Shown: one piece after another, positions 4,170 to 58,696 of the stretch
How positions within the stretch are numbered: position 1 is the stretch's first letter
Layout: the number at the start of each line of letters is the position of its first letter
Assembly: GCA_015069415.1 (NCBI GenBank)
Contig: SVIQ01000005.1
Coordinates: 27,415-91,414, forward strand
Direction: 5' to 3'
Length of the DNA stretch: 64,000 nucleotides
DNA from: Clostridiales bacterium
Lineage (GTDB): Bacteria > Bacillota > Clostridia > Christensenellales > UBA1242
Notes under the pieces: model-generated
What the model was told of the DNA's origin: nothing
What the model saw: the letters and a program-made list of their open reading frames with translations, nothing else
Database searches by the model: none
Made by a program: the position numbers and the translations under genes

Positions 4170-5246
4170 ATGAAAAAGAAATGTGTAATATTTGGTGGAG
4201 CAAGTTGCGAACATGATGTTTCGATTATAACTGGAATGCAACTTGCTAAAAAATTTTCAGCAAAAGAGGAAATTGAAAAAATTTATTTAGGACTTGATAA
4301 CAAATTTTATTTGGCAACAAAAGTAACAGACTTGAAAACTTTTTCAGACAAAAAAAATTTAAAATTGAAAGAAATAGTTATAAAAGATTCTTCTATATTC
4401 ATAAAAGGTGTACTTTTAAAAAAATATTGTGAAATTGATTGCGTAATCAATTGTTGTCATGGAGGTATCGGAGAGAATGGAACTCTTGCTGGATTTTTCT
4501 TAACTAATAAAGTTTCATATGTTGGCTCATCTCCGTTGAGTGCTGGTATAACTATGGATAAAACGCTAACAAAAAAATTAATAGACAAGAAAATTAACAC
4601 TATAAAAGGTGTCTTAGTCACAAAAGAAAATTTTGATGATGCTACTAAAAAAATAGAAAAAGAATTTAAAGATGAGTTGATTGTAAAACCTAATTCTCTC
4701 GGTTCTAGCATAGGTGTTAAGGCTTGCACTAAAAATGATTTTAAAGATCAGATTTTAGCAATTTTTGAATTAAACGACGACGCTCTTGTTGAAGAAAGGA
4801 TTGTTGATTTAATTGAATACAATCAAGCGTGTTTTAGAGATAAAGATGAATTAGTGCTTAGCGCTATTGAACAGCCGATTACAAAATCAAAATTTTTAAC
4901 GTTTAAAGATAAGTATCAAAATAATTGTAAAGGTAAAGGAACGGATAGAATAATTCCTGCAAAGATAGAAAAGAAACTTCAATCAAAAATTGAGAAATGG
5001 ACGGCAGAAATTTATGAAACATTGTCTTTAGGCGGAGTTGTAAGAGTAGATTACATTTTTGATAGAGAAACTGGCGAGCTTTATTTTAATGAAGTCAATA
5101 CCATTCCGGGAAGTATGGCTTTTTATCTCTATGAAGAAAAAGGCATTGATTATGTAACCTTAATCGAAAGATTGATTGAAAACAAAATTAGCCCAAAAGA
5201 ATTTACTTTCATAGAAACGGGAATTTTAAGTAGCAAAAATATATAA
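4170..5246 (+). CDS. ddl: D-alanine--D-alanine ligase
   Basis: N-terminus MKKKCVIFGGASCEHDVSIITG, C-terminal ATP-grasp motif FNEVNTIPGSMAF, 358 aa. Confidence 0.9.
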   Translation: MKKKCVIFGGASCEHDVSIITGMQLAKKFSAKEEIEKIYLGLDNKFYLATKVTDLKTFSDKKNLKLKEIVIKDSSIFIKGVLLKKYCEIDCVINCCHGGIGENGTLAGFFLTNKVSYVGSSPLSAGITMDKTLTKKLIDKKINTIKGVLVTKENFDDATKKIEKEFKDELIVKPNSLGSSIGVKACTKNDFKDQILAIFELNDDALVEERIVDLIEYNQACFRDKDELVLSAIEQPITKSKFLTFKDKYQNNCKGKGTDRIIPAKIEKKLQSKIEKWTAEIYETLSLGGVVRVDYIFDRETGELYFNEVNTIPGSMAFYLYEEKGIDYVTLIERLIENKISPKEFTFIETGILSSKNI

Positions 5247-46764: not shown

Positions 46765-47628
46765 ATGGGAATATTCAAAAAGTTTTTTGAAAAGTTAAAA
46801 TATACATTCAAAAGAACTGAATTAAATGATGATTTTTATGACGAACTAGAATCTGTTTTGGTGTCCAGTGATATGGGTGTAGAAACCGCTATGGACATCA
46901 TGGATGAACTTAGGGATATTTGTAAGGCTAAATTAATTAAAGAAGCAGATTTGGCTGAAAAAGAATTAAAATCACTCTTAATTCAAAAACTTGAAGCCGA
47001 GAAAGTAGATTTTAAATTCCCACTTATCATAACGGTTGTTGGAGTAAATGGTGTTGGTAAGACTACATCAATTGCAAAGATGACAAAATACTTTTTAAAC
47101 AAGAAAAAATCAGTAATGCTTGCCGCAGGTGACACGTTCCGTGCGGCAGCTACTGAGCAACTTAATATGTGGGCAGACAGACTTAAAGTGAAAATAGTGA
47201 AACAAGGAGAGGGTGCAGATTCTGCTTCTGTTGTGTTTGATGCGATTAAAAGCGCAAAGGCTAAAAATACAGATGTTTTAATCGTTGACACTGCTGGTCG
47301 TCTTCACACTAAAACCAACCTTATGAAAGAGTTGGAAAAAATCAATAATATTGTAAATAGAGAGTACCCAGAAGCAATGAAATTAAATTTAATTGTTTTG
47401 GATGCATCGATCGGACAAAATTCAATTGCTCAAGTAAAAGCTTTTAAGGATAGTGTTGATATTGACGGAATTATTTTAACCAAGCTTGATGGAACAAGTA
47501 AAGGTGGAGTAGTTTATCCAATTATTAATGAATTACATGTTCCGATTATATTTACAGGGTTTGGTGAAACTGTAGAAGATATGGACGTGTTTGATCCTGA
47601 GAATTTTGTTGAGAAAATATTAATGTAA
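46765..47628 (+). CDS. ftsY: signal recognition particle receptor FtsY (NG domain only, no acidic A domain)
   Basis: GVNGVGKTTSIAK, DTAGR, TKLDG, 287 aa. Confidence 0.9.
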   Translation: MGIFKKFFEKLKYTFKRTELNDDFYDELESVLVSSDMGVETAMDIMDELRDICKAKLIKEADLAEKELKSLLIQKLEAEKVDFKFPLIITVVGVNGVGKTTSIAKMTKYFLNKKKSVMLAAGDTFRAAATEQLNMWADRLKVKIVKQGEGADSASVVFDAIKSAKAKNTDVLIVDTAGRLHTKTNLMKELEKINNIVNREYPEAMKLNLIVLDASIGQNSIAQVKAFKDSVDIDGIILTKLDGTSKGGVVYPIINELHVPIIFTGFGETVEDMDVFDPENFVEKILM

Positions 47629-47643
47629 GGGTGCTCGAAGATT

Positions 47644-47696
47644 TGCCGTTCACTAAACGGACGTTTGCAAGCGCAAATCCTAAGTCGTTCAGGCAA
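47644..47696. repeat. conserved core, copy 1 (53 nt)
   Basis: TGCCGTTCACTAAACGGACGTTTGCAAGCGCAAATCCTAAGTCGTTCAGGCAA. It differs from copy 2 at 5 of 53 positions (47645, 47649, 47661, 47670, 47691). Confidence 0.9.
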
Positions 47697-47750
47697 AAAC
47701 TTCTCGCACTGGGTTAAAAGGTGTTTAAAATAAAGAGGGAATCAGTTTTT

Positions 47751-47803
47751 TACCGCTCACTAAACGGTCGTTTGCATGCGCAAATCCTAAGTCGTTCGGG
47801 CAA
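47751..47803. repeat. conserved core, copy 2 (53 nt)
   Basis: TACCGCTCACTAAACGGTCGTTTGCATGCGCAAATCCTAAGTCGTTCGGGCAA, offset 107 nt from copy 1. Confidence 0.9.
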
Positions 47804-47845
47804 TAAATCTTCGACTATGTTAAGAAGTTTTATTTAGGAGAAAAT

Positions 47846-48415
47846 ATGGATAATATAAAAAATCAAATTAAAAATTTTAAACCGTTCAATGAACAAGAAG
47901 AAAAGGATAAAGAATATTTGTTGAAATTTATCGACTCTTTTGATGATACGTTAACAAGAGAAAATATATTTGGTCATTTTTGTGCTTCAGCATTTGTTCT
48001 TAATAAAGAGAGAACAAAAATCTTGTTAGTTGATCATAATATTTTTAAGGGCTATATATTTCCAGGCGGGCATGTAGACGGAGAAAAGGATTTCTTAAAA
48101 GTTGCACTTGAAGAAGTTGAAGAAGAAACGGGAGTAAAAGCAAAACCTATAAACAATGAAATATTTTCGTTGTGGACTTGCGCTGTATCAAGACATATTA
48201 AAAATGGGAAATTTATTCCGTCACATATACATTTAGATGTTAATTTCTTGTGTGAAGCGGATGAAAGCGAAAAGTTAACTATAAAACCAGATGAAAATAA
48301 AAATGTTATTTGGGCGGATATCAATGAAATCGGAAAATCGATCAAGTTAGTTGATTTCTTCCAATTAGAATATGAAAAATTCTTGCAAAAGTTAAAGGTA
48401 CTCAATGAAAATTAA
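47846..48415 (+). CDS. NUDIX hydrolase
   Basis: Nudix box GGHVDGEKDFLKVALEEVEEETGV (GX5EX7[R->L]EUXEEXGU). AGGAG RBS. Confidence 0.8.
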   Translation: MDNIKNQIKNFKPFNEQEEKDKEYLLKFIDSFDDTLTRENIFGHFCASAFVLNKERTKILLVDHNIFKGYIFPGGHVDGEKDFLKVALEEVEEETGVKAKPINNEIFSLWTCAVSRHIKNGKFIPSHIHLDVNFLCEADESEKLTIKPDENKNVIWADINEIGKSIKLVDFFQLEYEKFLQKLKVLNEN

Positions 48416-48707
48416 AGTTGTGACAATCTGTGGTGGTTTAAAGTTTCAAAAAGAAATGCAATCAATTTCAAGGGATTTAACTTTAAATAATGGTTGGTGT
48501 GTAATTCAGTGTGTTTACGAAATAGACAAAACAAAAATCACACAATTGGAAATTGACAATATGGTCAAAGCTCATTACAAAAAAATTGAAATTTCAGATG
48601 CGATTTATGTGGTCAACATTAATGGCTACATTGGAAATTCTACAAAAAATGAAATTGAATACGCAAAATCTTTAAACAAAGAAATCATTTATCATGAGGA
48701 AAGGTAA
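48405..48707 (+). CDS. small nucleoside 2-deoxyribosyltransferase / DNPH1(Rcl)-like superfamily protein
   Basis: 100 aa. It has a KVVTICGGLKF N-terminal beta-loop, and DAIYVVNINGYIGNSTKNEIEYAKSLNKEIIY matches the D/S-x-G-T-x-x-E-I-G-Y-A-x-x-L-x-K-P-I type motif of that fold. It overlaps the NUDIX stop by 11 nt. Confidence 0.4.
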   Translation: MKIKVVTICGGLKFQKEMQSISRDLTLNNGWCVIQCVYEIDKTKITQLEIDNMVKAHYKKIEISDAIYVVNINGYIGNSTKNEIEYAKSLNKEIIYHEER

Positions 48708-53586: not shown

Positions 53587-53661
53587 AGGGGAGTGGCTCA
53601 ACGGTAGAGTAGTGGTCTCCAAAACCATTGGTTGCGTGTTCGAATCGCGTCTCCCCTGCCA
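53587..53661 (+). tRNA. trnW: tRNA-Trp (anticodon CCA), 3' CCA encoded
   Basis: Hand-folded cloverleaf. Acceptor stem AGGGGAG/CTCCCCT, anticodon loop CTCCAAA, T-loop TTCGAAT, discriminator G, CCA. Confidence 0.9.
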
Positions 53662-56791: not shown

Positions 56792-58696
56792 ATGAGGAAA
56801 TTTAAGACTTTTTACAATATATATTCAATGCAAAAGCGCTTTGTTGCTCTTTTGCTTATAATCCTTGTCTTGTTTGTTAGTCTACTTGCAAGGATTTTTT
56901 ATTTGCAAATTATTACAGGAAAACATTTGCAAGCAATGGCAAGTGAGGAGTGGCTAAGAGATCTCCCTTTGAGTAGCAAGCGTGGTGAAATTTACGATTC
57001 AAACGGAGTGAGCCTTGCAACAACAATCACTACATATGATGTGTATGTTAGAGCAAGAAATGTTGAAAATGCTCAGGAACTAGCATCTGCCTTAAGTTCT
57101 AGATTAAACTTAGATTTTGATAACGTTTTGAAAAAAATTACAAACATTAAGCAAAGCGAAGTGTTAATTAAGATGCAAGTAGATGAAAATGTAGCAAAAG
57201 CTTTAACGAAGTATCCTGGAGTTTGCCTTTCTCAAAATGTAGCAAGAGTTTACCCATATTCTAATCTTCTAACTCAAGTTTTGGGCTATTGCACTATTGA
57301 CAACATAGGACAAGCGGGGCTTGAAAGCTACTATGATAAATACTTGAAAGGAATAGACGGAAAAAGTTTGACTCAAACAAATGCGCAAGGTAAGGAAATT
57401 GATAATTCGCTAGACTATTATATACCAAGTGTAGCGGGAGCGAATTTAACAACTACAATAGATGTTCAAATGCAAGCAATTTTAGAAAAAGAACTTTCTG
57501 TCGCTTTAGAAGAAAACAAAGCGTTAGGAGTTAGTGGGATAATAATGGACGCTAAAACTGGCGGAATTAAGGCAATGACATGCCTTCCATCTTTTGATTT
57601 AAATGATGTCCCTAGAAATGATATAAATTTACTTCAGTCAATGACCAAAAATTCAACAGTTGTAGATGTTTATGAACCTGGAAGTACGTTTAAACTTATT
57701 ACATTAGCATCTGCGTTAAATGAAGGATTAACAAACGAAAATGAGAGATTTTTTTGTGGTGGTAGATGTACTGTAGATGGCGAAACAATTAAATGCTGGA
57801 AATCTACAGGTCACGGAAGTTTAAATCTAACAGAAGCATTCAAAAATAGTTGTAACTGTGTTTTTGTTCAACTGGCTTTACGTTTGGGAGTTGAAAAATA
57901 CTATGAGTATCTAGACTTGTTTGGAATAGGAGAAAAAACGGGAATTGACATTTCAAGTGAGTCTAGCGGAATAGTCATGAATAAAGATAGTGTTAAAGTT
58001 GTTGATTTGGCGAGAATCGGATTTGGACATGCGGTGGCGGTCACCGAATTGCAAATGGCTAGTGTTTATGCAAAAATTACAACAGGTTATGATGTTACTC
58101 CGCATATATTAAACGAAATTAAAACTGAAAACCGAACATTGTACAAAACAAATCTGACTAAATCAAAGTTAGAGCTAAAGGAGAGCACTATAAAACTTGT
58201 TAATTCAATGCTATCGAATAATGTGAATAGTGAAGAAAACTTAACATTTGTTGCGGGCTTTGATGTAGGAGGGAAAACCGGCACGGCTCAAAAATACGCA
58301 GAAAACGGAAGCATAGCAACTGGGAAATATATATCAAGTTTTATAGGAACATTTCCTGCTAGTAATCCGGATTATGTGTTAATAGTTTGCATCAACGAAC
58401 CAAGCGCAGGTGCATACTACGGAGGTGTGGTTGCTAAACCTGTTGGACAAAGAGTTTTTAATTCTATTTTTGAAATTAAAGCAATCGAACCAACGGATGA
58501 AACGCAAAAATCTCTTGTGCCAACGATTGAAATGCCTAATTTAGTAGGCTTGACCGTAGCGGAAGCGTCTGCAAAACTTAAAACCTTAGGATTGAACGCA
58601 AACTACAGCAGTGAGGGAGAATATGTTTTAAGCCAACTACCTCCAATGGGTACTAAATTGTTTTTGGGAGAAATAGTTTATTTGATTTTAGGATAA
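56792..58696 (+). CDS. class B penicillin-binding protein (FtsI/PBP2B/SpoVD type) with one C-terminal PASTA domain
   Basis: GSTFK, SCN (SxN), KTGT, and a PASTA-like tail MPNLVGLTVAEASAKLKTLGL. The start is uncertain (56792 or 56828). Confidence 0.85.
   Translation: MRKFKTFYNIYSMQKRFVALLLIILVLFVSLLARIFYLQIITGKHLQAMASEEWLRDLPLSSKRGEIYDSNGVSLATTITTYDVYVRARNVENAQELASALSSRLNLDFDNVLKKITNIKQSEVLIKMQVDENVAKALTKYPGVCLSQNVARVYPYSNLLTQVLGYCTIDNIGQAGLESYYDKYLKGIDGKSLTQTNAQGKEIDNSLDYYIPSVAGANLTTTIDVQMQAILEKELSVALEENKALGVSGIIMDAKTGGIKAMTCLPSFDLNDVPRNDINLLQSMTKNSTVVDVYEPGSTFKLITLASALNEGLTNENERFFCGGRCTVDGETIKCWKSTGHGSLNLTEAFKNSCNCVFVQLALRLGVEKYYEYLDLFGIGEKTGIDISSESSGIVMNKDSVKVVDLARIGFGHAVAVTELQMASVYAKITTGYDVTPHILNEIKTENRTLYKTNLTKSKLELKESTIKLVNSMLSNNVNSEENLTFVAGFDVGGKTGTAQKYAENGSIATGKYISSFIGTFPASNPDYVLIVCINEPSAGAYYGGVVAKPVGQRVFNSIFEIKAIEPTDETQKSLVPTIEMPNLVGLTVAEASAKLKTLGLNANYSSEGEYVLSQLPPMGTKLFLGEIVYLILG

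Follow-up and report, generated by a model that had tools for sequence, protein, structure and literature searches.

The 217-nt spacer (47629-47845) between ftsY and a NUDIX hydrolase gene in a 64,000-nt stretch of a Clostridiales bacterium's genome (contig SVIQ01000005.1; this whole stretch is called the window here) is best read, we think, as a tandem duplication of a dispersed hairpin repeat, similar in kind to the repetitive extragenic palindromes (REPs) of bacteria and lying in the 3' untranslated region (3'UTR) or intercistronic part of the messenger RNA of the gene before it; we would put the probability of this reading at about 0.6. The repeat family is previously undescribed and is restricted to Candidatus Onthoplasma, a member of the Christensenellales (GTDB family UBA1242) with genomes of ~0.8-0.9 Mb that are ~91% coding (PMC12306168). 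The window's species is a deep branch of this group, judged by the relatives of its FtsY. The spacer lies between these two genes:

46765-47628, plus strand: ftsY (287 aa; Pfam SRP54_N and SRP54), with its TAA stop codon at 47626-47628
47846-48415, plus strand: NUDIX hydrolase gene, with ftsY as its neighbour on the 46-kb side, its ATG at 47846 and its ribosome-binding site AGGAG at 47836-47840

An earlier note on this DNA, made from the letters alone, had described the spacer as two 107-nt units, and this is confirmed, with 72 of 107 positions identical without gaps. Its 53-nt cores (47644-47696 and 47751-47803) do differ at exactly five positions (47645, 47649, 47661, 47670 and 47691), so that 48/53 positions agree in the core as against 6/15 and 18/39 in the flanks (40-46%), and their G+C content, which had been judged to be about half, was measured at 0.49 and 0.51 in a window of 0.32. 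Taken as a direct repeat, the duplication extends over 65 nt (47642-47706 and 47749-47813) at 86% identity with a start-to-start distance of 107, and its absence from the output of Tandem Repeats Finder is probably explained by the divergence of the unit flanks. A 40-nt core pattern finds two matches in the 64 kb, both of them here, and none in 100 shuffles. The perfect 10-bp complement that had been noticed between 47635-47644 and 47805-47814 is also exact, and it exists because the hairpin is tandemly duplicated, the left arm of copy 1 being complementary to the better-kept right arm of copy 2. Single-sequence folding is, alone, non-significant: copy 1 has z values from -1.1 to -2.6, and copy 2 and the spacer as a whole come out at ~0. 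In metagenome contigs of the same species the spacer is identical (L004-L019; the L codes stand for the loci and contigs that we examined, 7-22 kb for related metagenome-assembled genomes, MAGs), and hence offers no variation. Six of these contigs, assembled from short reads (L006, L011, L014, L015, L018 and L019), break within the spacer, at 17, 77 or 111 nt past ftsY or at 115-123 nt before the NUDIX gene, which could mean that the tandem repeat is hard to assemble or that strains differ in their number of copies. Samples in which the organism is present include JGI 3300032167 and 3300029705 and ENA ERZ27248436.

A count of further copies, which the earlier note had suggested, found them dispersed behind unrelated genes in relatives of the window's species, and this dispersal supports the idea, also raised there, of a palindromic element resembling REPs or miniature inverted-repeat transposable elements (MITEs). 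A two-block pattern built from the window and L033 copies was scanned over 185,579 species genomes and gave, in its strict form, nine matches, every one in an Onthoplasma-type MAG, single genomes having several of them on separate contigs; with the covariance models R1 and R2 the total came to 25 copies at ~19 sites in five Candidatus Onthoplasma MAGs plus the window. Our survey of ~1.1 Mb from ~55 Onthoplasma species, comprising ftsY loci and 42 loci reached via the PBP gene (window 56792-58696), has matches in one clade (CAZTNT, JAZONT, JAZNKB, SVHS and JAZXYJ) and in the window's species only, which branches far from that clade; inside the clade there is ~1 copy per 8-10 kb, and pairwise identity between copies is mostly low, at 53-69%. 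Comparison with Rfam, which the earlier note had also proposed, yielded nothing for the element at the gathering threshold in the window, nothing relevant at E<=10 over 47500-47950 and no match for other copies at 10 loci, so the spacer and these ten further-copy loci stay unmatched; the sole Rfam match of the window at the gathering threshold is a single tRNA gene (53587-53658). An exact core 19-mer has three chance matches in the genome contigs, inside genes, and a scan of metagenome contigs gave five chance matches in contigs of 50% G+C, that collection evidently being without these organisms. Searches of viral contigs, phages and plasmids found nothing similar, and a full-text literature search for the core sequences returned unrelated primers only.

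The family unit is an imperfect hairpin of 70-170 nt with a ~30-nt tail, and in the window it starts 1-3 nt after the ftsY TAA. Its parts are as follows:

47629-47735, plus strand: repeat unit 1, hairpin and tail, at 107-nt spacing (covariance-model match 47629-47713, 73.6 bits, E 4e-19)
47631-47709, plus strand: long hairpin of unit 1, with family-wide compensatory changes
47631-47640 with 47700-47709, plus strand: outer stem of unit 1, with family-wide compensatory changes
47635-47636 opposite 47704-47705, plus strand: outer conserved 2x2 mismatch, TC against TC, in columns unpaired in 18-20 of 24 copies
47642-47647 with 47692-47698, plus strand: middle stem of unit 1 (TTGCC/GGCAA), with a one-base bulge at 47697 and compensatory changes
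47649-47652 opposite 47688-47691, plus strand: inner YTCR block (TTCA) against TTCA, TC/TC mismatched in 22 of 24 copies
47653-47659, plus strand: left block CTAAACG of the asymmetric internal loop, conserved among copies
47660-47679, plus strand: variable tip, a 5-bp stem (47664-47668 with 47673-47677) and a 4-nt loop
47680-47687, plus strand: right block CTAAGTCG of the internal loop, conserved among copies
47710-47735, plus strand: tail of unit 1, with the purine-rich AAAAGGTG motif (GGTG at 47720-47723) and then an A/T-rich run
47736-47845, plus strand: repeat unit 2 (covariance-model match 47736-47820, 64 bits)

Single-base bulges flank the middle stem TTGCC/GGCAA on both sides. In the hairpin of unit 2 (47738-47816) the outer stem has decayed, the conserved blocks lie at 47760-47766 and 47787-47794, and the tail of the unit extends into the NUDIX ribosome-binding site AGGAG. 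The tip differs in length among copies, from 3-4 nt in short forms through the 20-nt mini-hairpin of the window to 45-115 nt in others, and a tail motif, AARNGG[A/T], keeps its position across copies at 13-14 nt past the right YTCR block. We had considered that this motif might be the ribosome-binding site of the downstream gene and rejected the idea, since the real site in L033 lies ~35 nt further on and the first units of tandems carry the motif too.

The predicted long hairpin is strongly supported by compensatory changes, and the idea of a structured element, which had been proposed from the window, is right in this sense. When 12 copies are aligned with MAFFT, paired cells make up 81.6%, as against 26-50% with slid partners, and both sides have changed in 17 of 27 pairs; in 24 copies, an alignment that was fitted to the model and is so biased towards it, two-sided changes occur in 18 of 22 pairs and the covariation score is 0.489 as against 0.07-0.15 for slid partners. 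Changes on both sides are found in 15 of the 19 outer and middle stem pairs, whose arms differ yet stay complementary, and the pairs that flank the inner mismatch covary as well (47649/47691, with CG in 15 and UA in 9 copies, and 47652/47688, with AU in 11 and GC in 10, among the 24). The core substitutions of the window have to be seen in this light: 47649 and 47691 together make a compensatory pair (U-A to C-G), 47670 lies in the tip loop, and 47645 and 47661 each weaken one pair in copy 2. The fold that had been drawn by hand was partly right, since its outer helices and its P3 fit the family structure, but its P2 (47656-59 / 47686-89) clashes with the covarying pair 47652/47688 and with the adjacent modelled invariant C-G pair 47653/47687.

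The position of the copies follows a strict rule. The genes upstream of them are unrelated (those for FtsY, a ComF-like protein, SepF, RuvX, MazF, ClpX, an ABC-F protein, ArgRS, RF1, PrmC and a GTPase, and, at L104y, a putative DegV-like protein read by eye without a family search), and in every copy the orientation is that of the immediately upstream gene. Most of the copies that lead an array begin in the range from 28 nt ahead of the upstream stop codon to 0 nt past it, and in L097a and L101 the open reading frame (ORF) terminates at the TAA inside the element's own CTAAACG. The rule applies also where there is room to spare. At L104 two genes converge and the element adjoins one of them, and at L144 two convergent genes each have their own co-oriented copy, 130 bp apart, with a shared canonical terminator beyond both; at L097 the copies stand behind a minority-strand gene, contrary to the local GC skew and to the direction of most genes. 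The arrangements at L144 and L097 imply that orientation tracks the transcription unit and not the replication strand. Arrays are head-to-tail (window, L097 and L104), and the sole inverted pair, that of L144, belongs to the two convergent genes.

A MazF/PemK-type toxin gene at L101 (47-328 / 372-420) enters the element, whose TAA serves as its stop (...ITKTVAVR*). At the same locus a 15-nt direct repeat, ATAACAAAAACAGTT, past the tail continues the frame to give ...ITKTVSTY*, as if the protein's original C-terminus had been displaced there.

The family also turns over. The ftsY site and the site behind a 350-aa gene are occupied in some species of the clade and empty in others, the empty sites consisting of a stop codon, ~8 nt and a terminator (for example L135). 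In L151 (1819-2060) a different full copy is nested between the arms and tail of an older L144/L156 copy, with a third, decayed copy after it; partial or decayed copies close the arrays in L097 and L101, and tandem or partial copies are found in L104 too. Copy 1 of the window is 74% identical to copy 2 over the hairpin and 39-69% identical to any other copy, and since tandem neighbours are each other's closest relatives, arrays arise by local duplication. We rejected the notion that insertion copies the right arm from the target, since the copies at the identical ftsY site of L033, L111 and the window differ in their left arms.

How might such an element work? It would spread as DNA and be carried in the mRNA of the upstream gene, in its 3'UTR or intercistronic part, which is what the fixed sense orientation argues for. 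The hairpin would start within the footprint of the terminating ribosome and most likely acts, by analogy, like the stop-proximal REP hairpins of E. coli, which, when the stop codon is <16 nt away, down-regulate translation and stall ribosomes (PMC12306157). It may form a barrier to 3' exonucleases, or alternatively a brake on termination-proximal translation that decouples adjacent cistrons. In the window it would stand as a divider between ftsY and the two inserted genes (NUDIX and 100-aa) that precede ylxM-ffh, and is probably a passenger of the variable islet between ftsY and ylxM, and not a NUDIX sensor.

A number of observations weigh against the reading of a REP-like repeat carried in mRNA. 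One is the strand: of 25 copies, 19 have their better fold on the strand complementary to the mRNA under RNA parameters, and 20 under DNA parameters (mean difference ~4 kcal/mol with RNA parameters; Wilcoxon p 4e-4 for RNA and 1e-3 for DNA). On that antisense strand both mismatches read 5'-YGAR-3'/5'-YGAR-3', a tandem G.A (in the window the outer one is 5'-CGAG/5'-CGAG on the minus strand), as against UC/UC loops on the mRNA strand, and the pairs that flank the mismatches covary so as to preserve Y and R. Sheared tandem G.A pairs are stable in a YGAR/YGAR context. Wobble pairs show no strand bias (10 versus 9), and a selected RNA would usually show one. Further, the ftsY spacer is the sole occurrence in the 64 kb of the window even with filters off, so that for this species an inert relic may be all that the element is. 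The search pattern itself accounts for part of the invariance of CTAAACG and CTAAGTCGYTCRGG, and copies that came from the models alone vary more there. Purifying selection, a point in favour of the reading, is suggested by the orthologous copies L156b and L144a, where identity is 85.7% and the third codon positions of the adjoining gene reach 71%, an estimate that comes from one pair only. No transposase or recombinase was identified in the 7-22-kb loci, and no target-site duplications were found as exact direct repeats of >=8 nt at 19 copies, beyond the tandem units; the sole exception in this last search is the 15-nt repeat of L101, and short or degenerate duplications could escape it.

Much of this would suit a purely selfish DNA element, whose active form would be a single-stranded hairpin of the mRNA-complementary strand, handled by an HUH/RAYT-type transposase or a recombinase and with no role as RNA, and whose sense orientation and stop position would reflect target choice or the insertions that a tightly packed genome tolerates. 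We regard this as possible and, on balance, unlikely. The bottom strands of integron attC sites are recognised by a recombinase in just such a hairpin form, and the better folding of the antisense strand with both parameter sets, its tandem G.A mismatches and the unbiased wobble pairs all fit. So do the patchy occurrence (one clade and the window's species in ~1.1 Mb from ~55 species), the nested, replaced and decayed copies, and the different variants that related species hold at the same sites, behind ftsY and the 350-aa gene. What tells against it is that orientation follows the upstream gene and not the replication strand (L144 and L097), for which a selfish element would need an ad hoc link to transcription; that the stems are compensated and conservation in the one orthologous pair exceeds that of silent sites; and that no transposase, conserved terminal inverted repeats or target duplications were seen in the loci examined.

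A somewhat more tentative thought is that the family is a new orientation-specific class whose members target stop codons or lie against them, each being a structured module in which a conserved internal loop is combined with two mismatch motifs that are strand-asymmetric. Such an element would, in reduced-genome gut Clostridia, install itself directly behind stop codons in the sense orientation, nest within older copies and act on events coupled to termination (ribosome release, protection of the mRNA 3' end or decoupling of cistrons) through an undescribed protein or mechanism; we consider this doubtful, if worth keeping in mind.

Far less probable is a gene for a small antisense RNA, in which a promoter in the tail would drive a minus-strand RNA from the G.A hairpin into the 3' end of the upstream gene. 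The better-folding antisense strand and the position-conserved, A/T-rich tail speak for it, but a scan for promoter-like sites across the spacer and its surroundings found no excess over shuffles and none in the tails, where by eye no consistently spaced -35/-10 pair could be aligned, and it would be unparsimonious for one repeat family to control ~19 unrelated housekeeping genes.

A riboswitch or other cis-regulatory RNA acting on the downstream NUDIX gene, possibly with tandem aptamers, has almost nothing in its favour beyond a G+C-rich, structured spacer with two similar domains upstream of that gene. Rfam gives no match, whether at the gathering threshold or at E<=10, the NUDIX orthologues that directly follow ftsY in L025 and L032 do so after a spacer of 6-7 nt without the element, and none stands upstream of the NUDIX genes in L111-L115. 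Downstream genes vary, and copies between convergent genes have nothing downstream to control. The copies are dispersed and have no gene association, the very finding that the earlier note had named as refuting its riboswitch.

Quite as improbable is the 17-codon micro-ORF that had been read on the minus strand as [TTG]-PERLRICACKRPFSER. Its frame is kept in both window copies with four synonymous changes, LPERLRICACKRPFSER can be read in each and copy 2 does have a TAA there, so that much of the original description stands, but neither frame nor length is conserved in the family. Only PERL(S) is common to it, as merely conserved nucleotides; the short forms read LPERLS..V-stop over 9 codons, tip length shifts the frame, and an in-frame start codon is missing in many copies. 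Two of the ‘synonymous’ changes (47649 and 47691) belong to a single covarying pair, one on each side of it, and the frame is antisense to the operon with, by eye, no ribosome-binding site. Nor is the element an intrinsic terminator, with a G+C-rich stem directly before a U-run: there is no terminator-like site in 47300-48100, and L144 and L151 have a separate canonical terminator after their elements. Resemblances to a K-turn, a hairpin ribozyme and a hammerhead were dropped, there being no 3-nt bulge beside G.A, no G opposite AGUC and no Rfam match.

Among known systems the closest is that of the REPs and bacterial interspersed mosaic elements (BIMEs) of Enterobacteria and Pseudomonas, which are RAYT-associated. 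These too are short, imperfect, extragenic palindromes present in many copies per genome, often in a 3'UTR or between cistrons a few nt from a stop codon, with a hairpin in the transcript and a sequence specific to a species or genus. In contrast, our element has no GTAG/GTGG 5' foot (its left flanks read GGGTG, AGGTG, GGAGG, GGAGT, GAAGG and GTAAT, among others, and share no tetranucleotide), exceeds them two- to fourfold in length, has a modular internal-loop build and a tip that varies, and has arms that vary between copies yet remain complementary. It is also strictly sense-oriented and forms direct tandems, whereas REPs typically occur as inverted pairs (REPIN/BIME), and its host is a reduced-genome member of the Christensenellales. 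Bacterial MITEs, as we understand them (Correia in Neisseria, RUP and BOX in Streptococcus, RPE in Rickettsia), share the form of a non-autonomous ~100-nt hairpin repeat, the presence or absence between relatives and the overlap with gene ends, seen here in L097a and L101. They differ in that the termini of our element are not sequence-conserved inverted repeats, its conserved parts being interior, no target-site duplications were found and the copies are 53-69% alike.

The likeness to integron attC sites is structural and extends to several respects: a place directly 3' of an ORF in fixed orientation, structure conserved over sequence, a variable terminal structure, conserved unpaired positions that make the strands non-equivalent, and better folding of the strand complementary to the coding one. 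The core sites RYYYAAC / GTTRRRY are, however, lacking at the base of the stem; the window tails GTTAAAA and GTTAAGA fail the last GTTRRRY position, and the left core site is absent. Nor are the copies arranged in a cassette array, being scattered behind core housekeeping genes with tandem units of ~100 nt that hold no ORF, and no integrase turned up, although no search was aimed at an integrase or attI. By analogy, then, the element would work most like a REP while resembling attC in several structural respects, and we file it as REP-like, yet as a kind of its own.

The genes around the spacer deserve some attention as well. Across ~50 related species the usual order is ftsY and then, only 6-10 nt on, ylxM-ffh, and the ftsY-ylxM junction is a variable islet (window 47629-48707; L020-L071 ~3862; L111 9134-10800), filled according to species with a NUDIX gene, the gene for a 100-aa protein, or genes for a UDG-superfamily protein, a metallophosphoesterase, DUF1653, RidA, a 67-aa or a 138-aa protein, all with tiny spacers. 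For the 138-aa protein we withdrew a guess that it is HIT-like, as there is no Pfam match. The 100-aa ORF of the window (48405-48707) overlaps the NUDIX stop codon by 11 nt and has no Pfam match, and it is kept beside ftsY in L033 and L060 at 63-68% identity. One related hairpin each stands behind the ftsY of L033, where the 100-aa gene comes next, of L111, where RidA does, and, in diverged form, of L035. L112 has a run of N inside ftsY (~1090-1190), and its apparent 546-nt gap between two NUDIX genes is ftsY. A second dispersed motif, GTCATNCYGASCG...GAAG...ATC, adjoins several of the hairpin copies and has no Rfam match in the loci scanned; it resembles what we take to be a repeat widespread in many bacterial phyla. 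Its sites are:

L035, 3935-3965: second motif
L098, 5445-5480 and ~4405-4440: second motif, two sites
L103, minus strand: second motif, just after the element
L105, ~4375: second motif
L144, 4035-4075: second motif
L156, 6585-6620 and 1375-1410: second motif, two sites

For those who annotate such genomes the practical consequence is a simple one, which is that the G+C-rich spacer should be labelled a repeat element and not a riboswitch, a small RNA or a small ORF. The class is an ordinary one, that of the dispersed palindromic repeat, and it is the position rule that is unusually strict. These are very small genomes, and yet one clade tolerates or uses about one 100-nt hairpin per 8-10 kb. 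The sense-strand context of the element on the one hand and the stability of its antisense strand on the other make a concrete and testable puzzle, and the strict rule of sense orientation and stop codon, together with the compensatory stems, provides a clean natural system for studying how REP-like elements choose their sites, one that could also address whether stop-adjacent hairpins tune translation or mRNA decay outside the Proteobacteria.

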